A DNA stretch of 13,500 nt, taken from positions 151,000 through 164,499 of IMG/VR virus record IMGVR_UViG_3300032293_000813, one strand, 5' to 3'. The translations under genes were made by a program, and so were the position numbers. Source of the stretch: a virus (Duplodnaviria; Heunggongvirae; Uroviricota; Caudoviricetes). The notes under the pieces were generated by a model. That model ran no database searches. It was given only the letters and a program-made list of their open reading frames with translations, and was not told the DNA's origin. Positions 1,589 to 13,500 of this stretch are shown one piece after another (the stretch's first letter is position 1; every line of letters begins with the position of its first letter).

Positions 1589-2131
1589 TTATATCAATCT
1601 ATTAATACTATCTTTCTTAAAATCAACTATCATATGAATTCGCTCCACATTTGAATCATTGATAACTCCATGCTTTTCACCACCATTGTTTATCTCCCAT
1701 ATCTCCCCAACCTTTAGGTGTTTACTCTCTCCACCAACCGTAAATATACACCCTTCATTAGTCTGTAATGGTATATGTGTTCTATTGTGTGTTTCCAATG
1801 AGCCTCCATAATCAATATGCGTAGGAACTTTACTGAAAGGTGGCATACTAACTATTTCTATTCGTATGATATTACCCACTCCTAATATACTATTATATAA
1901 TATGTTTAATTCATCAACATCAGTTTCAAATATATTATAGAACTTAGACCTATTTCCTATAAATGCTGAATACTCTTCATCATATAATATGGGTATAGTT
2001 TTAGTCTTTCTATGCACTTCATATGTATCTTGTCTAAATGTATAAGCATTCCAATCCTCATCGGTTAGAGTGTTTAACTTATTCATCCAATGTTCTATGT
2101 TATAGTTTCCTAAAAATATAAAGTTATCCAT
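1589..2131 (-). CDS. Aspartyl/asparaginyl beta-hydroxylase-like 2OG-Fe(II) oxygenase (cupin fold)
   Basis: H-x-D motif (THIDYG), RTHIPLQTN, distal His in KHGVIN, RIHMIVD; pattern typical of this family. Confidence 0.75.
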   Translation of the reverse strand: MDNFIFLGNYNIEHWMNKLNTLTDEDWNAYTFRQDTYEVHRKTKTIPILYDEEYSAFIGNRSKFYNIFETDVDELNILYNSILGVGNIIRIEIVSMPPFSKVPTHIDYGGSLETHNRTHIPLQTNEGCIFTVGGESKHLKVGEIWEINNGGEKHGVINDSNVERIHMIVDFKKDSINRLI

Positions 2132-3332
2132 CGATATCTTTTCTAAAAGGTTTTGACCATTTTGGTTTAATTAATTTCCAAATGATATCATCATGTGGTT
2201 TCTTATCCCACATTGAAAATAATATAGGTCGTAATACATCCTGTTGCTTCATAACAAATTCAGCAAACTCTTTCTTAGTTGGCTCCGGGTCTACATCACC
2301 ATACTTACCATATCGGAATCCATCATGCAACTTACCGGCTCTTTCGCTGATATGAAAGAAACTATATCTCAAATTCATAGCAACCCGCTTTACCCAATCA
2401 TCAAACTCATCGGGTACTCTTTCTAAGAACTCATTCATATCACCTTTGGTTCTTAACACCTCCCATATATCAGTAGTTGAAAAGTTGGTAAGGATTCTAT
2501 GTAATCGAACATACTCATCACCTTTGATTTTCATTCTCATTCCATTTCTGAAACGGATAACATATCCTTCTTTGGCATTTGATATCTCCCTTTTCAATAC
2601 ATCAAATCCTTCACCAAAAGTATTGTATTTCGTAACCAAAGGAATACCTGTTACTTCTGATTCATTACACATTGTAACATAATCCAATTCCTCTCCGCTA
2701 TCAGTTCTAATAATACCTAACAATACTAATTTTTCATCACTACCATAATCTAATACTATACGATTTTCAGGATAAATGATTTCAAATAAGTAAGTATAAT
2801 TTTCCATCAACTGAGTAACATTATATGTATTCAATAACTCTCTAGCCTTTACAGATTGCTCTGATGTAAACGAACCTCTAGTTGCTACATGCCATTCTCC
2901 TTTTGTTGTCGGAGTTGGATGAAAATATGGGTCATCAAAGTCCGGAACAATATCTTCATAATATTCCATACCGGTTTCATAGTTACCATTGAACCATAAT
3001 CTATACCTTTCACTATATGTTAATTCTCTCTCATAATAAAAGCATATACCTAACGAACCATCCATTTTCTCATACACATCAAAGTACTCATTTGGAATTT
3101 CATCCGCAGTATGCTCTTCGTAGTTAAAGAATTTAGGGAATGGTTTAGCGATTACATTACCTTCGTTATCTAATACCAACCCTCTACAATTTAAGGTAAT
3201 ATCATCCCACATCTCGCCATATTGACAAGAACGTGAATAGTTGTAGATTGATAAAGGCAAAGTTGGGTGAACTTGCTTTATTACCAATCCTCTTTCTATG
3301 TAATCATTCAATATGTTTAAATCGTATTTCAT
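2124..3332 (-). CDS. T4 Rnl1-like ATP-dependent RNA ligase
   Basis: CRGLVLD, PFPKFFNYEE, motif I EKMDGSLG, ATRGSF, TYLFEII, EGYVIRF, MKIKGDEY. Start placed at ATG 3332 (MKYDL) rather than 3380 because a small upstream ORF ends at 3337. Confidence 0.88.
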   Translation of the reverse strand: MKYDLNILNDYIERGLVIKQVHPTLPLSIYNYSRSCQYGEMWDDITLNCRGLVLDNEGNVIAKPFPKFFNYEEHTADEIPNEYFDVYEKMDGSLGICFYYERELTYSERYRLWFNGNYETGMEYYEDIVPDFDDPYFHPTPTTKGEWHVATRGSFTSEQSVKARELLNTYNVTQLMENYTYLFEIIYPENRIVLDYGSDEKLVLLGIIRTDSGEELDYVTMCNESEVTGIPLVTKYNTFGEGFDVLKREISNAKEGYVIRFRNGMRMKIKGDEYVRLHRILTNFSTTDIWEVLRTKGDMNEFLERVPDEFDDWVKRVAMNLRYSFFHISERAGKLHDGFRYGKYGDVDPEPTKKEFAEFVMKQQDVLRPILFSMWDKKPHDDIIWKLIKPKWSKPFRKDIDG

Positions 3333-3336
3333 TTTT

Positions 3337-3432
3337 TTAAAATTTACCCCATTGGGATTTATCTCTATTTTGTTCTGCAATCTTAAATCCTAATAGGATA
3401 TCATTAAAGAATTGCTTGATTTTTTTTATCAT
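3337..3432 (-). CDS. Small 31-aa hypothetical protein MIKKIKQFFNDILLGFKIAEQNRDKSQWGKF
   Basis: ATG overlaps the kinase stop (ATGA overlap at 3429-3432); its TAA ends 4 nt before the ligase ATG; exactly fills the gap. Confidence 0.5.
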   Translation of the reverse strand: MIKKIKQFFNDILLGFKIAEQNRDKSQWGKF

Positions 3433-3845
3433 AATTTTATATTAAATCTATTTTTCATTTGTTCTAACTTATCAGCAGGAACTCCATGTTGATTTACTCC
3501 ACCATGTCTATTCTCTACAATAATAGTGAATATCATATAACCATATTTTTCTGCTAACTTAAAATATTCTTCCATCTCCCACTCTTGAGTAAATGTATTT
3601 GATACTACAATCTCTGGATAGAATTGTGGATTGACTTCGTTATCTTTCATTCTGATTTCCACTTGTTCTTTACACCACTTATGTGCATCTTTTATTTTAG
3701 AACCATCAAAATTATAGTTCCCTTCTTTATCATAAAAGAATTTATCTGCTTCACAAATTGCGTAATCGTTCCAAATGAAACCTGCTAATGTTGATTTACC
3801 ACTTCCTGGCAATCCTCTTACTAATGTTAATACTTTTGGTATCAT
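3429..3845 (-). CDS. P-loop kinase (AAA_33 / polynucleotide 5'-kinase-like)
   Basis: Walker A RGLPGSGKST, EADKFF, VVSNTF, HGVP..KL..M..RF C-terminal motif. Start placed at ATG 3845 (MIPKV) to avoid overlap with the upstream gene. Confidence 0.8.
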   Translation of the reverse strand: MIPKVLTLVRGLPGSGKSTLAGFIWNDYAICEADKFFYDKEGNYNFDGSKIKDAHKWCKEQVEIRMKDNEVNPQFYPEIVVSNTFTQEWEMEEYFKLAEKYGYMIFTIIVENRHGGVNQHGVPADKLEQMKNRFNIKL

Positions 3846-3858
3846 AACTTTTATTTTT

Positions 3859-4170
3859 TTATAATTGACCTCCCAATAATGCTTCATTCATATTCTTAGC
3901 ATCATATTCTTTTACTAATTTATTTATTTTTTCTTCTATACCATTTGAAATTATAGTTTCTAATGAGTTAGGCATATCAGTATTGAAATAAAATCTAGAC
4001 ATATTAAATTTCAATTTTATTTGAGAATATTTAAAACCAGGAATAGTTACCAATCCTTTATCAAATATACTATCTAAGTATTCTGTTACTGATGGGATGT
4101 TTATATCCAATCCGTAATGTCCTTCTTCTAAATAATCTTTATACTTTTTGTTGAATTCTTGTGTTGTCAT
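3859..4170 (-). CDS. Hypothetical protein (103 aa)
   Basis: Tightly packed ORF; SQIKLKFNMSRFY resembles a QIKEKF..LRFY-type motif I associate with phage hypothetical proteins. Confidence 0.65.
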   Translation of the reverse strand: MTTQEFNKKYKDYLEEGHYGLDINIPSVTEYLDSIFDKGLVTIPGFKYSQIKLKFNMSRFYFNTDMPNSLETIISNGIEEKINKLVKEYDAKNMNEALLGGQL

Positions 4171-4642: not shown

Positions 4643-5296
4643 TTATTTATAATTTTCGGTTATTTCGTGATGGTCTTTACTGAATAAACTTTTTACAGGT
4701 CTATCCCTCATAATAGATAATATCTCACTCATATCAATTGGATACAAATCATTACCTTCACATCCCACATCCATCATCTTACCTTCTTGCAATCTCATTG
4801 ATGGGTCAAAGTGAACGTGCCCATGCAAATGTATTGCACCTCTTGCCATATTATCCCAACTTGCTATTGGAAAGTGCATTAGAGCAAATCTTACATCACC
4901 TTGCAATGGAGTACCAACATTATACTTTACAACCAAATCTAAATATTTGTTTACTGAACTGAATAAAGATTGAACTCCATCTTTGTTGTTACCAATATGA
5001 TGGTCGTGATTACCTAGTATTAAGTGAATGTTTTTACATACCAATTGGTCTCTGAACTTTTGTATAGATTCAAAGCCACCAAAACTCCAATCACCTAAAT
5101 GAAATAAGATGTCATCTTGTCCAACTTTCTCATTGATATTACATACCAATGTGTTGTTCATATGCTCCAACGATTTGAAATCCCTTAATGTTACAGGGTT
5201 AGTCCACTTTGTTGTAGATGAACAAATGTTATCGTGGTTATAGTGTGTATCACTAGTGAACCACAATCTTTGACCTTTATTTAAGTTTATTTTCAT
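4643..5296 (-). CDS. Calcineurin-like metallophosphoesterase
   Basis: All five metal motifs: SDTH, LGD, GNHD, MHFP, HGHVH. Confidence 0.9.
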   Translation of the reverse strand: MKINLNKGQRLWFTSDTHYNHDNICSSTTKWTNPVTLRDFKSLEHMNNTLVCNINEKVGQDDILFHLGDWSFGGFESIQKFRDQLVCKNIHLILGNHDHHIGNNKDGVQSLFSSVNKYLDLVVKYNVGTPLQGDVRFALMHFPIASWDNMARGAIHLHGHVHFDPSMRLQEGKMMDVGCEGNDLYPIDMSEILSIMRDRPVKSLFSKDHHEITENYK

Positions 5297-6402
5297 TATT
5301 CGTATTCTTCTCTGTTAATATTAATTACATATGGGAAACGAGGAATACCATCCGGTGTTAAATTGAAGTACTGAATAGTAGCAGATTTACCAATTAACTT
5401 ACTCTTACTTTTTAGTATCTCTGCTCCTTCTTCCCAACTACACTTAACGTTTGATTTAAACCTCTTGCCTTCGATTTCAAACACCATATAACCCACCTGG
5501 CCGGTCTTATTACCTTCACCCTCACATATATCTAAGATGGGAAATTCACTATCCTGAAACGATTTATGCTTCAATAGGAACTTACTTCTCTTATTTTCAT
5601 AAAGACCGTTTAGTCGTAAGATTTGCCCCTCATATCCCTTCTCTACATATCCTTCATACAACTCCATTACTTCTTTCTCACTTCTACACACATCAGTATC
5701 AACATTTATACAATGTGAATTAAAGTAACTCCATTCTGTAAATAGATTATATAGAGATTGACTTCTGATTTCAAATGTATCATCTACGCTTGGTAAATCA
5801 TATATCCAATACTGAATATTCTTTTTACTTTCCGCCAAATCTTCCGCAGTTGGCTTAGTTCGTTTTACTAATGATACAATCTTATTAAAATCATTAGCAA
5901 ACTTATCAGCATATAACTCACCATCAAATATCAATTGAGGATTAGTTTCAAATAGGGGTTTCAATGAATTAAAGATGTGTGGTGCTGAAATGATTACTTT
6001 ACCATTACGACTAAACATTCCTTCACTTGTCACAATACATCTAATACCATCTAATTTTGGTTGTGAGAATATTGGGTAAGCAATCTTATCTTTACTATCT
6101 TCCCACTTACTCGCCAACATTGGTTCAAAGTATTGTTGTTCGTTGATGTTATTTATATCTTCGAAGTAACCACTTTCTAACTTCTTAGTTCTTTTTGCTA
6201 CCGCTTCCGCTAATGCCTGTTCTTCATCAGTAGTTGAATTTGCTCTACCTACATTCTTACCAAAACAAACTGTCCATTCATTGGTAGATATTACACCACC
6301 AACTTGTCCACTATGTGTTCGGTATTTATTACCTTCAACTTCGATACTCCACTCCTGCGTAGCACCTGTTTTTGTTTTCTTATATATTGTTTGTAACTTC
6401 AT
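5296..6402 (-). CDS. ATP-dependent DNA ligase with N-terminal extension
   Basis: Motif I QPKLDGIRC, FDGELY, YWIYDLP, GYEGQILR, LLKHK, C-terminal OB-fold motif TIQYFNLTPDGIPRFP. Confidence 0.92.
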   Translation of the reverse strand: MKLQTIYKKTKTGATQEWSIEVEGNKYRTHSGQVGGVISTNEWTVCFGKNVGRANSTTDEEQALAEAVAKRTKKLESGYFEDINNINEQQYFEPMLASKWEDSKDKIAYPIFSQPKLDGIRCIVTSEGMFSRNGKVIISAPHIFNSLKPLFETNPQLIFDGELYADKFANDFNKIVSLVKRTKPTAEDLAESKKNIQYWIYDLPSVDDTFEIRSQSLYNLFTEWSYFNSHCINVDTDVCRSEKEVMELYEGYVEKGYEGQILRLNGLYENKRSKFLLKHKSFQDSEFPILDICEGEGNKTGQVGYMVFEIEGKRFKSNVKCSWEEGAEILKSKSKLIGKSATIQYFNLTPDGIPRFPYVININREEYE

Positions 6403-7652: not shown

Positions 7653-8174
7653 TTAATATTGGATTAGAGATACTACATCTTTTCCACCAATCTTTATTTC
7701 TTTATGTAGAAATGTTAAATCAATCAATACAATAGCACCAACTACGTTATATCCTGCTGCGTTTAATAGATGCTCGGTTGCAGTTAATGTACCACCTGTT
7801 GCTAATACATCATCTACTATTATAATATCTTCATAGGTTTTTTCATTTTCCTTTACCTCTAATATATCAGTTCCATATTCTTTAGTAGCATATGTTGCAA
7901 CTTTAGGGTGTGGTAACTTTCCTTCTTTACGAATTGGAATAAATCCTAAACTATTCAATCCTGCAATTGGTGCTCCTAATAGGAATCCTCTTGCCTCTAT
8001 TCCTGCTATTAAATTAACTTCCGGAAAACTATCTGATATTAATATAGATAATTCATCTAACGCATATCCAAATGCCTTTGGGCTTGCTAATAGTGGAGTT
8101 ATATCTTTAAACCCTATTCCCTTAGATGGAAAATCCTGAACCTCTTTGATGTAATCCTTTAGATTAATTTGCAT
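7653..8174 (-). CDS. apt: Adenine phosphoribosyltransferase
   Basis: FKDITPLL, GIEARGF, RKEGKLP, EYGTD, PRPP-binding IIVDDVLATGGT. Confidence 0.92.
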   Translation of the reverse strand: MQINLKDYIKEVQDFPSKGIGFKDITPLLASPKAFGYALDELSILISDSFPEVNLIAGIEARGFLLGAPIAGLNSLGFIPIRKEGKLPHPKVATYATKEYGTDILEVKENEKTYEDIIIVDDVLATGGTLTATEHLLNAAGYNVVGAIVLIDLTFLHKEIKIGGKDVVSLIQY

Positions 8175-8177
8175 TTA

Positions 8178-8732
8178 TTATAATTTGAATGTTGGTAATA
8201 CTTTATCTTTATGTGATACTTTCATTTCTATTTCTCTCACTCCCCAATCTATATTAAGCGTTGGGTCATTATATACAATACCACCTTCTGATTCTTTGTT
8301 ATAATAGTTATCCACTTTGTAATTGAATAACGCTACTTTTGATAAAACTGAGAATCCATGCCCACATCCTTTCGGCACAAATACCATCTTACCATTCTTA
8401 TCACTTAAATCAACGGTGATATGTTTACCATAAGTTTCCGAATCATGCCTTAAATCTACAATCACATCTCTAACTAAACCATACGAACATCTAACTAACT
8501 TTGATTGTGCCCATTCTCCTTGCTGAAAATGAATACCTCTTACAACTCCATAATTAGAAAATGATTCGTTATCCTGCACAAAGGTAACGTTATGACCTAA
8601 TGTAAGTTTTAATACATCTTCAAACACATCTTTAACATAAGGTGTTGAAAAGTATCCCCTCTCATCTTTATAGATTTCAGGCTTTACAATGAAACAATCT
8701 TTGATTTTGGTTTTCTCTAATTTGTATTCCAT
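8178..8732 (-). CDS. rmlC: dTDP-4-dehydrorhamnose 3,5-epimerase
   Basis: DERGYF, FVQDNESFS..GVVRGIHFQ, KLVRC, DVIVDLR, VPKGCGHGF, YKVDNYY, YNDPTLNIDW, S.KD. Confidence 0.93.
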   Translation of the reverse strand: MEYKLEKTKIKDCFIVKPEIYKDERGYFSTPYVKDVFEDVLKLTLGHNVTFVQDNESFSNYGVVRGIHFQQGEWAQSKLVRCSYGLVRDVIVDLRHDSETYGKHITVDLSDKNGKMVFVPKGCGHGFSVLSKVALFNYKVDNYYNKESEGGIVYNDPTLNIDWGVREIEMKVSHKDKVLPTFKL

Positions 8733-8748
8733 AACTATTTTTAATTTG

Positions 8749-8896
8749 CTGTAAGAGATGGATTCGAACCACCACGATGCGATTCAGTAAGTAACACTTT
8801 GCCGGCCGGCTGGTGGTCTACCCCATATTACTTACCTATTTCGTGCTCATCACCCCCGAGACAGGAGGGCTTGTCTGCCAATTTCAACACCTTACA
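8749..8896 (-). ncRNA. tRNA-like RNA with GUC anticodon and 79-nt branched variable arm
   Basis: Acceptor TGTAAGG/TCTTACA + G73; class II-type D arm TTG-AAATTGGCAGA-CAA; anticodon arm CCCTC-CTGTCTC-GGGGG; T arm GGTGG-TTCGAAT-CCATC; insert 8774-8852. Confidence 0.75.
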
Positions 8897-8901
8897 CTTT
8901 G

Positions 8902-8986
8902 CGGAGAAACAGGGATTCGAACCCCAGATACCTTTCAGTATGCCGGTTTTCAAGACCGGTGCATTCAACCACTCTGCCATTTCTCC
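8902..8986 (-). tRNA. tRNA-Ser(TGA)
   Basis: GGAGAAA/TTTCTCC acceptor, CCGGT-CTTGAAA-ACCGG, long variable arm, TTCGAAT loop, G73. Confidence 0.95.
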
Positions 8987-9001
8987 TAATATCGTTAGAT
9001 A

Positions 9002-9574
9002 TTATTTTATTCTAAAGTTATATCCAAATGTTAAAAAAGGTGTTGGAGGTGCGTAATCAGTTCTCATTGTTACTCCTACTCCTATTTGATAAATATCACT
9101 TTTTTTACTCTTAATCAACAAATTAGCACCATACCAATCAACAATTTGTTTTGAATTAGCTTTAAGATTATACCCCACATAGTATTCGGTTTGTGGTGGA
9201 ATAGGTGTTGGTAATTCAACGTATTCGGTTCTTACCTTTACAATTGGTTTGGCTTCAACTATCTGTGGTTTTACAATCGTATCATGTACTATAATCGTAT
9301 CATGCATACTTGCTACTTCCAATAATTGAGCAATCTTATCAAACTCAATTTTAGCAGGTATTTGCTTTTCTCTAGTGATGTATTTAGTCTTGTAAATAGT
9401 ATCCAATTGGGTAACTATTTTTTCAAGATAAACCGTATCCGTTGCTGGCTCACTAATAACCGCCGCAGGGATGTTCGTATTGGACTCCTTAACTTTATTG
9501 CTAAGATTACCACACTTTAATACTAATAGCACTCCCACTATTAATATTACCACAAATATAACCACTTTTTTCAT
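9002..9574 (-). CDS. Hypothetical membrane-anchored or secreted protein
   Basis: MKK + hydrophobic stretch + Cys; DTV/DTI repeats ([11 protein letters not shown]); beta-rich C-terminus. ATG 9574 preferred over the track start at 9580. Confidence 0.7.
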
Positions 9575-9594
9575 TTTCACCCATAGATAGAATC

Positions 9595-9852
9595 TTAGTA
9601 GATATTATCATCCTCATCTATCTTAAAATCTATTATCATTTGTCTTCTTCTAGCTTCTTCAGCTTCTCTATACCATCGAATCCAAGTTAAGGATACATCG
9701 ATAGGTGCAAGAATCCACGCCATCACCACCACCATAATAGTATCCATTTCAGGAGAACCACCTGTAGGGTCATTACTATATCTTTTATTTAGATTTTTAA
9801 ATAACTGATAGAAACAATAGATAACACAAATTACATAATAACTAATAAACAT
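9595..9852 (-). CDS. Small membrane protein (85 aa)
   Basis: Two hydrophobic segments; first gene after the promoter at 9872-9903. Confidence 0.7.
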   Translation of the reverse strand: MFISYYVICVIYCFYQLFKNLNKRYSNDPTGGSPEMDTIMVVVMAWILAPIDVSLTWIRWYREAEEARRRQMIIDFKIDEDDNIY

Positions 9853-9871
9853 AACTTCTTTTTAATTTAAA

Positions 9872-9903
9872 CAAATATACGAAATTTATTTCAAACTTGC
9901 AAA
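9872..9903 (-). promoter_or_regulatory. Bacteroidota-type promoter
   Basis: TTTG (9903-9900), 20-nt spacer, TATATTTG (9879-9872). Confidence 0.75.
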
Positions 9904-9911
9904 TATTTTTG

Positions 9912-9982
9912 TTATTCGGGCTGGATTCGAACCAGAACTAATTGTACCAAAAACAATTGTGCTACCGTTACACCACCGAACA
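9912..9982 (-). tRNA. tRNA-Gln(TTG)
   Basis: TGTTCGG/CCGAATA acceptor, ATTGT-TTTTGGT-ACAAT, TTCGAAT; one T-stem mismatch. Confidence 0.9.
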
Positions 9983-9987
9983 ATAAT

Positions 9988-10058
9988 CTCAAGCATTCTA
10001 CTTCTCGCAACAGAAATTGTATCTTACTTAGCCCTGCTGTGCGATACGGGTACTTGAG
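9988..10058 (-). ncRNA. Candidate structured spacer RNA (closing stem + pseudoknot + hairpin)
   Basis: CTCAAGTA/TGCTTGAG closing stem; crossing CCC/GGG and GTATC/GATAC; TTTCT-GTTGCG-AGAAG hairpin. Confidence 0.4.
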
Positions 10059-10062
10059 TTTG

Positions 10063-10134
10063 AGCAGATGAGAGGAATCGAACCTCCGTCTCCTACTTGG
10101 AAGGAAGGAGTAATGGCCATTATACGACATCTGC
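10063..10134 (-). tRNA. tRNA-Gly(TCC)
   Basis: GCAGATG/CATCTGC acceptor, loop CTTCCAA, U73. Confidence 0.93.
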
Positions 10135-10143
10135 TTAAAAAAT

Positions 10144-10190
10144 GGTGGATAGAAAACATCTATCTTCCTTTCGGCACTCCACCGGATGCC
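10144..10190 (-). ncRNA. Candidate pseudoknot RNA, copy A
   Basis: GGCAT-CC-GGTGG-A-GTGCC...GAAG-ATAGA-TGTTT-TCTAT-CCACC; same architecture as 13393-13437. Confidence 0.5.
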
Positions 10191-10195
10191 CACTG

Positions 10196-10269
10196 TGGAC
10201 CAGATAGGAATCGAACCTATTACCTTCGCATTATGAGTGCGCTGCTCTAACCGAATGAGCTACAAGTCC
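10196..10269 (-). tRNA. tRNA with CAT anticodon, probably Ile2 (lysidine type)
   Basis: GGACTTG/CTGGTCC acceptor, A73, GCGCA-CTCATAA-TGCGA; body resembles bacterial tRNA-Ile2; Met not excluded. Confidence 0.85.
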
Positions 10270-10270
10270 A

Positions 10271-10318
10271 TATCGTTTAATCTAACGATAAAATCTGATA
10301 TCGTTTCTTTCAACGATA
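10271..10318. repeat. Tandem inverted repeats TATCGTT-N6-AACGATA (x2)
   Basis: 10271-10290 and 10299-10318; identical 7-bp arms, different 6-nt centres. Confidence 0.8.
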
Positions 10319-10325
10319 AATAAGG

Positions 10326-10445
10326 TGCCGGAGGAGAGATTGGTTACTCACACGATGTCCACTTAGGATACACCACCTTTCTAGAATTACGGTACGTCTA
10401 ATAGTTCTTATTCGAAACTCAAACTATTCTTTCCGCCACTCCGGC
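10326..10445 (-). ncRNA. tRNA-Leu-derived tRNA-like RNA with D-loop hairpin insertion and remodelled T-loop
   Basis: Perfect GCCGGAG/CTCCGGC acceptor + A73-CC; D stem GCG/CGT; inserted AATAGTT/AACTATT hairpin; 17-nt weakly paired anticodon arm; long variable arm; T loop TAACCAAT. Confidence 0.65.
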
Positions 10446-10451
10446 ATATTG

Positions 10452-10525
10452 TGGAGGTGATAGGAGTCGAACCTACTACCCTCTGCGTGCAAGGCAGATG
10501 CTCTAGCCAAATGAGCTACACCCCC
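10452..10525 (-). tRNA. tRNA-Ala(TGC)
   Basis: GGGGGTG/CACCTCC with G3:U70, TCTGC-CTTGCAC-GCAGA. Confidence 0.96.
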
Positions 10526-10637
10526 AATTAATGTAATGTCTGTACGGTTTGTGTCTTATCCACACTTTTATTGTGCTTCATTAGTTTCCATTTCATACTT
10601 AGCGTCCGTTCCGTCATTCTTTCGAATCATTACACCG

Positions 10638-10723
10638 TACCAGAGGTGGGAGTCGAACCCACACGAGCGATTTATGCTCAACAGATTTTAAGTCTGTCAT
10701 GTCTACCATTCCATCACTCCGGC
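10638..10723 (-). tRNA. tRNA-Leu(TAA)
   Basis: GCCGGAG/CTCTGGT, ACAGA-CTTAAAA-TCTGT, long variable arm, A73. Confidence 0.95.
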
Positions 10724-10739
10724 ATCTATTCTAATTATT

Positions 10740-11174
10740 CTAATTTAATTTACTTAATATTACTCCTCTAAGTTTAGTATGATTGTCATCTGGATTAATT
10801 AAGATGTCAATTTTATTTTTCCATCGTGGATTCATTAAATCCCTAACGTAATAAACTCCATTGTATTTTCCAGCATTTGATACTCTTACTTTTTCACCAA
10901 ATTTAAATTTCTTTTTTATATCTCTACTTACCGCAATCACTCTATCTTTTTTAGGATTGTCTTCATCCAATTCAAACCCACTCGCAGTTTCTAATGGAGT
11001 ATCATCAGTTTGTAAAGGGTCAATTGTATATGTAGTCATCGTAACAACAAATTTCTTAACTTCCTTAACAACTTCTTCCTTTACCATAGTTTCAATTGCA
11101 AATGGATTAAGTGTTTTTAAGTTTGTCGGTACAACTATACCAACAATCATTAATACTAATATTAATCTTTTCAT
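10740..11174 (-). CDS. 3D-domain (RlpA-like double-psi barrel) protein with N-terminal signal; putative peptidoglycan-acting enzyme
   Basis: VTMTTY...QTDDTP.ETASG, IAVSRD, FGEKVRV, YYVRD, KIDIL pattern. Confidence 0.75.
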   Translation of the reverse strand: MKRLILVLMIVGIVVPTNLKTLNPFAIETMVKEEVVKEVKKFVVTMTTYTIDPLQTDDTPLETASGFELDEDNPKKDRVIAVSRDIKKKFKFGEKVRVSNAGKYNGVYYVRDLMNPRWKNKIDILINPDDNHTKLRGVILSKLN

Positions 11175-11213
11175 AGTTTATGTTTATGGTTACTAATAAT
11201 TATAACACTTCTG

Positions 11214-11287
<74 letters not shown>

Positions 11288-11292
11288 AAATC

Positions 11293-11457
11293 GTTGTTTC
11301 AACTTGCAAGTTTACTCTTAACATCTCTTTCTCTACAACGTCTGAATCTAATCAACATTTGTAGTCCGAATGTAGCTTTTGGGTAATTACTCCAGCGCTT
11401 CTATGTAACTCTATGTGCCTTACTTTGTTACTAAGTGTGTTAAGTGTATGAAACAAC
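11293..11457 (-). ncRNA. Candidate 165-nt multibranched structured RNA between tRNA-Asp and tRNA-Arg
   Basis: Perfect 9-bp closing stem GTTGTTTCA/TGAAACAAC, nested CTTAACA/TGTTAAG, internal CTACAA(A)TGTT/GACGTTGTAG stem, AACTTGCAAGTT palindrome. Confidence 0.5.
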
Positions 11458-11460
11458 TTG

Positions 11461-11534
11461 CGGAATGTATGGGACTCGAACCCATGACCTCATCCGTGAC
11501 AGGGATGCATTCTAACCAACTGAACTAACACTCC
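11461..11534 (-). tRNA. tRNA-Asp(GTC)
   Basis: GGAGTGT/ACATTCC, CATCC-CTGTCAC-GGATG, G73. Confidence 0.96.
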
Positions 11535-11539
11535 AACTG

Positions 11540-11613
11540 AGCCTCCTGTCGGATTCGAACCAACGACCACCTGATTACAAATCAGGAGCTCTGGCCAACT
11601 GAGCTAAGGAGGC
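11540..11613 (-). tRNA. tRNA-Thr(TGT)
   Basis: GCCTCCT/AGGAGGC, CCTGA-TTTGTAA-TCAGG. Confidence 0.96.
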
Positions 11614-11618
11614 AATTT

Positions 11619-11682
11619 ATAGGTGGGGCTTAATTATTTAACTCTGTACCGCCATTAAGTCTTTAATGCTTTAGACACCTAT
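11619..11682 (-). ncRNA. Candidate 64-nt structured spacer RNA
   Basis: ATAGGTG/CACCTAT closing stem, CATTAA-AGAC-TTAATG hairpin whose loop could pair with upstream GTCT. Confidence 0.3.
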
Positions 11683-11684
11683 TG

Positions 11685-11756
11685 TACTCAGTACGGGATT
11701 CGAACCCGTATTACATCCGTGAAAGGGATGTGACCTAACCCTTAGTCGAACTGAGC
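11685..11756 (-). tRNA. tRNA-Glu(TTC)
   Basis: GCTCAGT/ACTGAGT, CATCC-CTTTCAC-GGATG. Confidence 0.95.
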
Positions 11757-11761
11757 GTTTG

Positions 11762-12160
11762 TTAAAAAGGTAAACTTATAGAACTACTATTAAATGTAGC
11801 TTTATGTTTTATCTTTTGTATTTCCGCCACTAATTTCAAATAACTATCAACCATACTATTCTTATGTAACTCTTCACATACTTGCCTAAGAAACTGATTC
11901 ATATCCCACATATCTTTTCTACGAAATATCCTTTTGATATTCGGAGTAATCTGAGTAGGAACTACATAAGCAGTCATCCAAAACTCTGTATCCTTTGCTT
12001 CTAATGTTACTCTCAATAATGTGTCTCCGATGTTATCAGAATTATCCATTTCTAATACATAGAAATCATCCTTATCCGTATAAGTAGAGGATATGGATAG
12101 CCCTGCCCCACTTATGAATACACTCCTATACCTTAACTTATCCCATCCTTTTATTATCAT
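11762..12160 (-). CDS. Hypothetical protein (132 aa)
   Basis: ORF with its own promoter at 12168; no recognised family. Confidence 0.7.
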   Translation of the reverse strand: MIIKGWDKLRYRSVFISGAGLSISSTYTDKDDFYVLEMDNSDNIGDTLLRVTLEAKDTEFWMTAYVVPTQITPNIKRIFRRKDMWDMNQFLRQVCEELHKNSMVDSYLKLVAEIQKIKHKATFNSSSISLPF

Positions 12161-12167
12161 AACTTTA

Positions 12168-12199
12168 CAAAGATACGAAAAAACATCGATATAACCTAA
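12168..12199 (-). promoter_or_regulatory. Bacteroidota-type promoter
   Basis: TATCTTTG at 12175-12168 within TTTTCGTATCTTTGT; degenerate -33 (TTAG) 20 nt upstream. Confidence 0.7.
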
Positions 12200-12219
12200 T
12201 ATTTCTTCATTTATTTCCG

Positions 12220-12305
12220 CAGAGAGTGAGGGGCTCGAACCCTCGCGGCTTTAACACCCTAACGATTTAGCAAACCGTCCCCTTCACCAACTTGGGTAAC
12301 TCTCT
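12220..12305 (-). tRNA. tRNA-Ser(GCT)
   Basis: AGAGAGT/ACTCTCT, ACGGT-TTGCTAA-ATCGT, long variable arm, G73. Confidence 0.95.
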
Positions 12306-12307
12306 AT

Positions 12308-12384
12308 TGGGGTGTCTAATGAGGTTCGAACTCATTCTATCAGTACCACAAACTGACGTGCTAACCGTTAACACTATAAACACC
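12308..12384 (-). tRNA. tRNA-His(GTG) with encoded G-1 and CCA
   Basis: G-1:C73 pair, TCAGT-TTGTGGT-ACTGA, 3' CCA. Confidence 0.95.
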
Positions 12385-12393
12385 ATTTTAATT

Positions 12394-12660
12394 CTATTCT
12401 TTGGCCGCTTCAGCCCAATTCTCATTAACCATTGACCAATAGTTTTTGTTTAAGTAGATAATATCATATCCACTATCGTTTCTATCTATGAAGATGATTC
12501 CTTTCTTAACCAATGAACCCAACGCTCCTCTGATTGTCTTTGTTGGGATGCCCATTTCTTCACTCAAATCGTTTACATCCACATCTGAATAACCAGGTTC
12601 CGCATATAAACAACTGATGAAAGTACTTAACGTTTTGTCTTCTAACCATGTAATGTTCAT
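12394..12660 (-). CDS. Putative winged helix-turn-helix DNA-binding protein
   Basis: DVNDLSEEMGIPTKTIRGALGSLVKKGIIFIDR: HTH followed by a beta wing. Confidence 0.7.
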   Translation of the reverse strand: MNITWLEDKTLSTFISCLYAEPGYSDVDVNDLSEEMGIPTKTIRGALGSLVKKGIIFIDRNDSGYDIIYLNKNYWSMVNENWAEAAKE

Positions 12661-12679
12661 AACTTTTATATTTTAAGGT

Positions 12680-12919
12680 TTAATAATTATTTCTCTTTGC
12701 ACCGAATGGTAATCTATCATCACACTTAGGTCGTAACATCTTTCGGCCTAGCAACTCCCACTTAGCTCTCTCATATCTCTCCATACTAATAGCACCCATC
12801 TCAATGTGATACTCCATATTCAACTCATAAGGGTCAACACCCGTATAAAGAGCAGTGCTCTCTAAGAAATCAACATACTCAACAACACTCATCAAAGCCA
12901 AATTGGGTAAATTAGTCAT
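12680..12919 (-). CDS. Hypothetical protein (79 aa)
   Basis: First ORF after the promoter at 12955-12986. Confidence 0.65.
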   Translation of the reverse strand: MTNLPNLALMSVVEYVDFLESTALYTGVDPYELNMEYHIEMGAISMERYERAKWELLGRKMLRPKCDDRLPFGAKRNNY

Positions 12920-12954
12920 ATCTTTTATCTTTATGTTTAACTCTTATTACATAG

Positions 12955-12986
12955 TAAAGGTAATACATTTTGTATTAAAAGTCAAG
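12955..12986 (-). promoter_or_regulatory. Bacteroidota-type promoter, variant -7 box TACCTTTA
   Basis: CTTG (12986-12983), 20-nt spacer containing the palindrome AATACA-N3-TGTATT, TACCTTTA; downstream CTTTACTATGTAA identical to the 7056 promoter. Confidence 0.65.
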
Positions 12987-13006
12987 CTTTATTTCATTTA
13001 TTTTTG

Positions 13007-13076
13007 TCGCATGTATGAGGTTCGAACTCATTTGGTCATCCTTATGAGAGATAACTCTTTTCCACTAAGCCATGCA
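13007..13076 (-). tRNA. Degenerate CAT-anticodon tRNA (Met-like; possible pseudogene)
   Basis: Intact T arm ATGAG-TTCGAAC-CTCAT and CTCATAA loop; acceptor TGCATG/CATGCG; about 3 nt missing between acceptor and D arm. Confidence 0.55.
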
Positions 13077-13081
13077 GTTTG

Positions 13082-13152
13082 AGGTGAATATTGGATTTGA
13101 ACCAATGTGAATGGTTTTGCAGACCACCTCCTCGCCTCTCGGACAATTCACC
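13082..13152 (-). tRNA. tRNA-Cys(GCA)
   Basis: GGTGAAT/ATTCACC, GTGGT-CTGCAAA-ACCAT, U73. Confidence 0.94.
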
Positions 13153-13158
13153 CTATTG

Positions 13159-13230
13159 TAGCCCCTAAAGGATTCGAACCCTTACTAAAACATCCGTAGT
13201 GTTTCGTGCTATCCGTTACACCAAAGAGCC
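13159..13230 (-). tRNA. tRNA-Arg(ACG)
   Basis: GGCTCTT/AGGGGCT, AAACA-CTACGGA-TGTTT. Confidence 0.93.
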
Positions 13231-13236
13231 AAATTG

Positions 13237-13307
13237 CACCCCCTGAAAGATTCGAACTTTCATCTGCGGTTTTGGAGACCGATATGCTACCATTGCACCA
13301 AAGAGAT
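13237..13307 (-). tRNA. tRNA-Trp(CCA)
   Basis: ATCTCTT/AGGGGGT with three G:U pairs, TCGGT-CTCCAAA-ACCGC, G73. Confidence 0.92.
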
Positions 13308-13312
13308 GTGTG

Positions 13313-13386
13313 TTGGAATAGATGGACTCGAACCATCGACATTCACCGTATCAGGATGACACTCTAACCAACTGAGTTATATTCCA
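13313..13386 (-). tRNA. tRNA-Ile(GAT)
   Basis: TGGAATA/TATTCCA, TCATC-CTGATAC-GGTGA. Confidence 0.95.
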
Positions 13387-13392
13387 ATAAGT

Positions 13393-13437
13393 GGTGGATG
13401 TATGCTCATCACATACTTCATTGGCTTCCACCGAGCC
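13393..13437 (-). ncRNA. Candidate pseudoknot RNA, copy B
   Basis: GGCT-C-GGTGG-A-AGCC-AATGAA-GTATG-TGATGAG-CATAC-AT-CCACC; same architecture as 10144-10190. Confidence 0.5.
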
Positions 13438-13439
13438 TA

Positions 13440-13500
13440 TGGTCGGAATAGCAGGATTCGAACCTGCGTGCTCCACATCCCAAATGTGGCGAGATAGACC
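13440..13500 (-). tRNA. tRNA-Pro(TGG), 5' end outside the window
   Basis: CCACA-TTTGGGA-TGTGG, GCAGG-TTCGAAT-CCTGC, A73-CCA. Confidence 0.9.

Follow-up and report, generated by a model that had tools for sequence, protein, structure and literature searches.

Conserved structured RNAs interleaved with the tRNA genes of a large phage

We describe a set of structured RNA elements packed between the transfer RNA (tRNA) genes of a phage, as found in a stretch of 13,500 nucleotides (nt) of the IMG/VR virus record IMGVR_UViG_3300032293_000813 (positions 151,000 to 164,499; hereafter the window), which forms the terminal 13.5 kb of a 164,499-base freshwater phage contig with a completeness of 83%. 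Nine non-decoding structured elements (E1 to E8 and E10), falling into approximately eight families, are interleaved here with 18 tRNA genes, and comparison with related arrays indicates that their conserved RNA-level structures are almost certainly real. The best overall explanation, to which we give somewhat better than an even chance, is that a large Bacteroidota phage carries here a stable-RNA operon of the type known from phages T4 and T5, in which each spacer would be a small-RNA gene packed like a tRNA. All genes and features treated here lie on the minus strand, and the contig end cuts the array.

A first-pass annotation, made from the sequence alone, had counted 18 tRNA genes, two rebuilt tRNA-like RNAs and at least five structured spacers. 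The tRNA count was reproduced as 16 genes called by ARAGORN, a tRNA-Pro truncated by the contig end (13443-13500) and a tRNA with a CAU anticodon that lacks a D arm (E9; 13007-13076). The rebuilt tRNA-like RNAs are present at 8749-8896 (E1) and 10326-10445 (E5), as are the five spacers, named there by their positions 9988 (E2), 10144 (E3), 11293 (E7), 11619 (E8) and 13393 (E10); two further structured spacers had been overlooked, at 10531-10635 (E6) and 10271-10318 (E4). The assertion that each spacer pairs its own ends holds for 9988-10058, 11293-11457 and 11619-11682, but not for 10142-10191 and 13393-13437, which are H-type pseudoknots with the 5' end paired internally. Similarly, the plain tRNA-tRNA gaps, said to measure 2-6 nt, are indeed 2-5 nt long, but four other gaps of 462-924 nt are occupied by protein-coding open reading frames (ORFs); the structured elements fill the remaining gaps.

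Approximately 300 related loci were gathered by means of neighboring proteins and motif patterns, yielding 119 distinct homologues of E1, 51 each of E5 and E6, 29 of E3, 21 of E7 and 14-19 of E2, with small sets for E9 (11), E8 (six) and E10 (two besides the window). Alignments were built with MAFFT without reference to structure and compared with slid controls: the named helices are paired in 93-99% of the cells, as against 25-64% in the controls. Two-sided changes affect 7 of 12 pairs in E3, 9 of 22 in E2, 11 of 24 in E5, 5 of 32 in E7, 10 of 25 in E1 and 11 of 16 in E6. In E1, E5, E6 and E7, Watson-Crick pairs reached E-values below 0.05 in a tree-aware covariation test that used an R-scape-like null of our own; the highest-ranking pairs were nearly all Watson-Crick and situated within predicted helices. 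Thus, on the covariation check that the first-pass annotation had proposed, the spacers are conserved, covarying structured RNAs with tRNA-like packing rather than unconserved sequence.

The same related arrays show how these elements are distributed. Distinct gap sizes are bimodal, with 326 at no more than 12 nt, 40 at 13-39 nt and 299 at 40-200 nt, and an end stem of at least 7 bp is found in 55 of the 153 spacer clusters, compared to 19.5 expected from shuffles. In 11/12 copies of E2, 13/16 of E3, 30/36 of E6 and 6/9 of E7, no more than 15 nt separate the element from the next unit upstream. The elements are gained, lost and relocated independently among relatives: across 57 non-redundant arrays E1 is present in 39, E2 in 15, E3 in 27, E5 in 40, E6 in 25 and E7 in 16, in 29 combinations, with the frequencies of E1, E5 and E6 inflated by the partial use of their own patterns in gathering the loci. 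E3, E6 and E8 are flanked by 11, 13 and four different tRNA pairs, respectively. In relatives without a given element the same two tRNAs stand 2-6 nt apart; accordingly, the elements behave as optional genes rather than required processing signals. Beyond the window families, the phage loci L004-L441 hold about 150 spacer clusters, 33 of them with at least three members and many unrelated to the elements described here.

The ascertainment just mentioned is one of several points that weigh against our interpretation. The best pair of E2 attains a tree-aware E-value of only 0.14, which is suggestive, and that of E3, at 0.038 with 15 sequences, rose to 0.115 with 29, so that its place below 0.05 was lost in the enlarged set. 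E8 and E10 have few homologues. Single-sequence folding, another check proposed in the first-pass annotation, beats dinucleotide shuffles only modestly, with minimum free energy z-scores between -0.5 and -3.6 across the elements and between -0.5 and -2.4 for the five spacers it had named; hence the support for the structures is comparative.

This architecture had been offered as undescribed; it is in fact already known from T4 and T5. T5 carries eight stable RNAs within its tRNA array (rna1, rna2, rna3, rnaI, rnaIII, rnaIV, rna2H and rnaX; AY543070), three of them annotated as tRNA-like, and the species 1 and 2 RNAs of T4 (rnaC and rnaD; NC_000866) lie next to tRNA-Arg. As in the window, these are non-tRNA and rebuilt tRNA-like RNAs of 70-170 nt, placed 0-6 nt from tRNAs, mostly closed by a terminal stem and of unknown function; T4 rnaC has been detected by Northern blot, again without a known function (PMC9697503). 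The window elements, too, are non-coding structured RNA genes with tRNA-like spacing among tRNA genes, although the array differs in its larger number of families, their independent assortment and the conservation of palindromes in three of them. The families themselves are not homologous to the T4 and T5 RNAs and are absent from Rfam: profiles of E2, E3, E5, E6 and E7 found no match in the T4 and T5 regions, that of E1 matched generic tRNA arms only, and with the covariance models of Rfam 15 only tRNA genes reached gathering scores, with no credible spacer match up to an E-value of 10. Readings of the spacers as 6S RNA, YrlA or a permuted transfer-messenger RNA (tmRNA) were dropped, as permissive Rfam scans gave no family. 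Searches of cultured phages recovered matches to tRNA arms only and no cultured phage with the elements, a relaxed ARAGORN run returned only noise, and scans for sigma-70 promoters and terminators were uninformative. No description of these RNA families was found in the literature searched, which did not extend to subscription papers. Among the 8,495 candidate structured RNAs reported from IMG/VR by Fremin et al. (PMC10690425), some are tRNA-like and one sometimes overlaps a tRNA-Asp call; an earlier computational listing of our families among these candidates, which come from the same database, is possible.

E2, E3 and E10 are compact and knotted. E2 (9988-10058) is a 71-nt three-way junction closed by an 8-bp stem; its two hairpins pair loop to loop, the linker left unpaired is conserved, and the loop-loop helix is among the covarying pairs. 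E3 (10142-10191), 50 nt long, is an H-type pseudoknot that carries an inserted hairpin in its loop 3. E10 (13393-13437) is the second-best match of the E3 model in the window (E-value 0.09) and shows the same three helices; together with a homologue in locus L402 that has a compensatory change in stem 1, this suggests that it is probably a paralogue of E3. An exact match to E10 in locus L361 was discarded as a chance coding match. Like E3 and E10, theta ribozymes (PMC10879173) are small RNAs with pseudoknots that immediately follow CCA-less tRNAs in Bacteroidota phages. In contrast to theta and other HDV-like ribozymes, however, E3 and E10 have a single H-type pseudoknot without P3, P1.1 or the invariant catalytic cytosine, and E2 differs in being a three-way junction. 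We rejected a hammerhead reading of E2 and a theta reading of E3, as the core nucleotides do not fit.

Among the remaining spacers, E6 (10531-10635), a multi-stem RNA of 105 nt, has a core that is unpaired and nearly invariant, and three pairs at a tree-aware E-value of 0.015 or better. This core may resemble an interdigitated T-loop of the kind in the RNase P S-domain. A small ORF within E6 was rejected: length steps between homologues are not divisible by three, and conservation tracks pairing. E7 (11293-11457) is a 165-nt multibranched RNA with a 9-bp closing stem and two pairs at a tree-aware E-value of 0.025; it has a probable loop pseudoknot, in which the loop of the first hairpin could pair with a segment further downstream, with one compensatory change. 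A hairpin motif within E7, GGRGUAAUUR (11381-11393), recurs in unrelated spacer RNAs, 19 of its 44 distinct contexts lying within 200 nt of a tRNA, and may possibly be a shared protein-binding or tertiary motif. E8 (11619-11682) is a 64-nt RNA with a 7-bp closing stem and an invariant hairpin, supported more weakly by a single compensatory change; its six distinct copies occupy four different tRNA slots. The closing stems of E2, E7 and E8 are separated by 1-3 nt from the upstream tRNA and by about 5 nt from the following one. E4 (10271-10318) is a long irregular hairpin preceding tRNA-Met/Ile2, with a z-score of -3.6 and homologues in which the inner stem is altered.

E1 (8749-8896), a 148-nt tRNA-like RNA supported by homologues and compensatory pairing, connects the array to its hosts. 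It combines a GUC anticodon, U37, C38, G73, G2-C71 and U1-A72 with a class II D arm, a canonical elbow and a variable arm of about 79 nt. Its pattern matches at least 120 chromosomal loci of Bacteroidota, 85 of 120 divergent from a gene for an AsnC-like regulator and only two near tRNA genes, identifying E1 as a phage copy of a chromosomal RNA family adjoining asnC. Host copies can be multiple, with 2-5 in several loci (L303 of Persicobacter, L253, L262, L299 and L317), the five of Persicobacter standing in tandem at a spacing of 172 nt; many phage copies have a hairpin inserted in the D loop (L008, L017, L025), at the same place as in E5. The identity set for aspartyl-tRNA synthetase (AspRS) and the amidotransferase GatCAB (GUC anticodon, C38, G73, G2-C71 and U1-A72) is complete in E1. 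U1-A72, a determinant for amidation of aspartyl-tRNA (PMC9976931), is retained in 91/94 phage copies and 116/120 host copies; the corresponding figures for G73 are 94/95 and 119/129.

The tRNA-Asn that serves tRNA-dependent asparagine synthesis by AspRS and GatCAB (PMC9976931) shares U1-A72 and G73 with E1, which for its part sits in gatB-positive genomes beside an AsnC-like gene. Unlike that tRNA-Asn, the E1 family has an Asp anticodon, U37 and a variable arm of 30-120 nt, because of which E1 is unlikely to decode; neither ARAGORN nor Rfam calls it. All E1-positive genomes carry gatB (27/27 in a phylum sample and 17/17 in a class sample), no asnA or canonical asnB was found above the cut-off in the 17 of the class sample, and AsnRS is present in the five E1-positive genomes checked. 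These observations tentatively point to E1 as an off-ribosome carrier of asparagine, a role that we would place at somewhat less than an even chance: gatB is common regardless (93/121 genomes of the class sample, which includes one unpublished genome, G327, on which no conclusion depends by itself), 76 gatB-positive genomes have no match to the E1 pattern, the tallies ignore kinship, and the anticodon loop was partly fixed by the search pattern itself. The papers searched contain no description of a dedicated asparagine carrier of this kind.

E5 (10326-10445), supported by homologues and covariation, is derived from tRNA-Leu and keeps its acceptor, D stem, variable arm, A73 and genomic CC. Its elbow is rebuilt, with a hairpin replacing G18G19 and a non-canonical T loop, and a palindromic loop of 9-14 nt stands in place of the anticodon loop. 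Lacking G18G19 and a TpsiC loop, it does not have the features of a decoding tRNA and, like E1, is called by neither ARAGORN nor Rfam. A reading of E5 as an amber suppressor was rejected, as the CUA belongs to a palindrome that other palindromes replace. E9, known from 11 distinct sequences, has an anticodon stem extended to 7 bp; in other relatives its slot holds a normal tRNA-Met.

Conserved palindromes are found in the loops of three elements. The tip of the E1 variable arm (8801-8810 in the window, 10 nt) is a candidate kissing loop: of 63 distinct segments, 60 have a self-complementary stretch of 6-12 nt there (12.1 expected; 4/90 in a control stretch), with at least 10 different cores, and the palindrome occurs in 79/91 phage copies versus 2/76 host copies. 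The E5 palindrome (10379-10386) is at least 6 nt long in 45/51 copies, with six cores, and that in the 3' bulge of E7 (11301-11312) at least 8 nt long in 20/21; canonical anticodon regions have one in 13/302. As the symmetry persists while the sequence changes, intermolecular pairing is favored over a DNA-binding site, and this suggests that E1, E5 and E7 may form RNA-RNA dimers. Palindromes of 8 nt are also seen in T5 rnaIII (L443:3285-3390) and T4 rnaC (L442:409-547), the former identical to that of E5 in the window; these being single sequences, this may be chance. Homo-oligomeric phage RNAs encoded at tRNA islands are known in GOLLD and ROOL (bioRxiv 10.1101/2024.12.08.627333); both GOLLD (RF02032) and ROOL are far larger than the window elements, which at 45-165 nt match neither.

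Release of the spacers may be envisaged as follows. RNase P cleaves before each tRNA, and its cut at the downstream tRNA would set the 3' end of the spacer. The 5' end would be generated by an endonuclease, most likely RNase Z, cutting directly after the discriminator of the upstream tRNA. RNase Z is favored because the tRNAs lack an encoded CCA, which in this array only the His and Pro genes possess; an endonucleolytic cut is needed because exonucleolytic 3' trimming, which the first-pass annotation had named beside RNase P as acting at tRNA boundaries, would have to digest the spacer itself. RNase Z-like genes were recovered from five E1-bearing Bacteroidota genomes (E-value ~1e-85, just below the curated cut-off). 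The freed RNA would carry short A/U tails and be protected by its closing stem or pseudoknot. We consider it quite probable that the spacers are released as discrete RNAs, and give about even odds to the role that we favor for them, as decoys or scaffolds acting in trans. In this role they would bind proteins of the translation machinery or its surroundings as accessory factors; E1, E5 and E9 would present identity elements of the synthetase type on bodies that are altered or do not decode, and the palindromic loops would allow E1, E5 and E7 to dimerise or oligomerise. E1 would be a carrier derived from the host and operating off the ribosome, its aspartylation being probable and its amidation by GatCAB possible. 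The whole would be a mix-and-match set, probably swapped by recombination via the flanking tRNA genes, and not one machine. A bolder and rather unlikely extension is that in large Bacteroidota phages the array is a plug-in rack for a class of small self-assembling RNAs, in which tRNA scaffolds and other folds, even the host-derived E1, have acquired palindromic kissing loops; the resulting dimers or polymers would multivalently capture host synthetases, GatCAB or defence nucleases and thereby rewire translation or asparagine supply in the infected cell.

We weighed this interpretation against several others. The spacers might act in cis, helping to cut or stabilise the tRNA precursor before being discarded; some could be self-cleaving ribozymes of a new type or knots that block nucleases. 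The compact pseudoknotted folds of E2, E3 and E10, which have conserved unpaired cores and begin 1-5 nt after a tRNA, would suit such a role, which theta ribozymes do perform in gut Bacteroidota phages (PMC10879173), and by inspection the three stems of E2 have a topology like that of a type III hammerhead. Nevertheless, no Rfam ribozyme model matches, E3 lacks P3 and the invariant J4/2 cytosine, and processing evidently works without any element in the relatives with closely spaced tRNAs; nor would this reading account for the tRNA shape of E1 and E5 or for the existence of a host family of E1. We therefore view a cis role as unlikely for the set as a whole, although E2 and E3 may possibly be cis-acting ribozymes or processing aids. 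A reading of the spacers as tRNA pseudogenes in decay, or as neutral DNA whose ends pair by chance, is very improbable: the z-scores are indeed weak and E5 and E9 are clearly tRNA-derived, yet the compensatory changes occur in non-tRNA topologies, the paired cells far exceed the slid controls, and conservation extends across dozens of phages, so that covariation largely refutes it. The spacers could instead be real folded RNAs that hitchhike between arrays by recombination and fold only to spare processing, consistent with their patchy presence, shifting slots and many unrelated families (153 spacer clusters). However, the invariant unpaired nucleotides, loop-loop covariation and preserved palindromes exceed what closing stems require and no mobility gene is attached, making this, too, improbable.

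Equally improbable in our view is one coordinated anti-defence system in which the RNAs are decoys for anticodon nucleases and act together with the neighboring RNA-repair genes, a bold form of the first-pass annotation's idea of an anti-defence or translation-control cassette next to an RNA-repair operon. Repair-type genes do lie 2.4-6.6 kb downstream of the array, namely those for an Rnl1-type RNA ligase (2124-3380), an AAA_33 kinase (3429-3887), a metallophosphoesterase (4643-5296) and an ATP-dependent ligase (5296-6402), and the tRNA set looks designed to replace host tRNAs. In the 49 relatives whose fetched flank measured 5 kb or more, the kinase is found near the array in 13 and the phosphoesterase in 14, or approximately a quarter, some with a different RNA ligase family; the Rnl1-type ligase is near it in only one, a count limited by flank length, and the ATP-dependent ligase in none. 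Furthermore, the elements assort independently, E5, without an anticodon loop, offers no bait, and E1 represents a chromosomal RNA of the host. Neither a Ro60 (TROVE) gene nor a match to the YrlA model was found, the absence of Ro60 not being final in a contig that is 83% complete. Repair-type genes are common neighbors of these arrays, but a link of the elements to RNA repair or anti-defence is unsupported.

The remaining features of the window place the array in its genomic setting. Its tRNA genes (8901-13500) comprise, besides E9, those for Ser(UGA), Gln, Gly, Met/Ile2, Ala, Leu, Arg(UCU), Asp, Thr, Glu, Ser(GCU), His, Cys, Arg(ACG), Trp, Ile and the truncated Pro. Motif matches to TAnnTTTG, the established Bacteroidota-type promoter consensus, place a -7 promoter motif at 12168-12175 and a second, accompanied by a -33 element, at 9872-9879. 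The ORFs within the array at 10740-11174, 9002-9580 and 11762-12160 belong to no Pfam family. An RNase H-like gene (PF04308; 7150-7605), which most relatives have within their tRNA array or next to it, in part through ascertainment, is a candidate processing nuclease; the regions 3-1471 and 7653-8732 hold phage GroEL/GroES-like, APRT and RmlC genes. A tmRNA is present on the contig outside the window. In the relatives, which are IMG/VR phage contigs of large size (up to ~290 kb), the array extends upstream with further tRNAs, GOLLD (7/7 scanned) and often tmRNA. GOLLD lies there between initiator tRNA-Met and tRNA-Asn with tmRNA upstream (L001:2300-3200, with equivalents in L007, L008, L013, L015, L020, L024 and L027), a slot that for the window array falls past the contig end.

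The stable RNAs in the tRNA clusters of T4 and T5 are still annotated as being of unknown function, and the phage group described here makes such RNAs testable: with approximately 150 spacer clusters, several of them with deep alignments, structure, invariant residues and presence or absence can now be read. E2 and E3, as compact covarying pseudoknots, are candidates for ribozyme or ligand screens, and the conserved symmetry in three of the RNAs offers a lead to natural RNA oligomers far smaller than GOLLD and ROOL. Finally, E1 links a phage RNA to a host RNA family beside asnC, suggesting that asparagine synthesis might take place on an RNA carrier off the ribosome.

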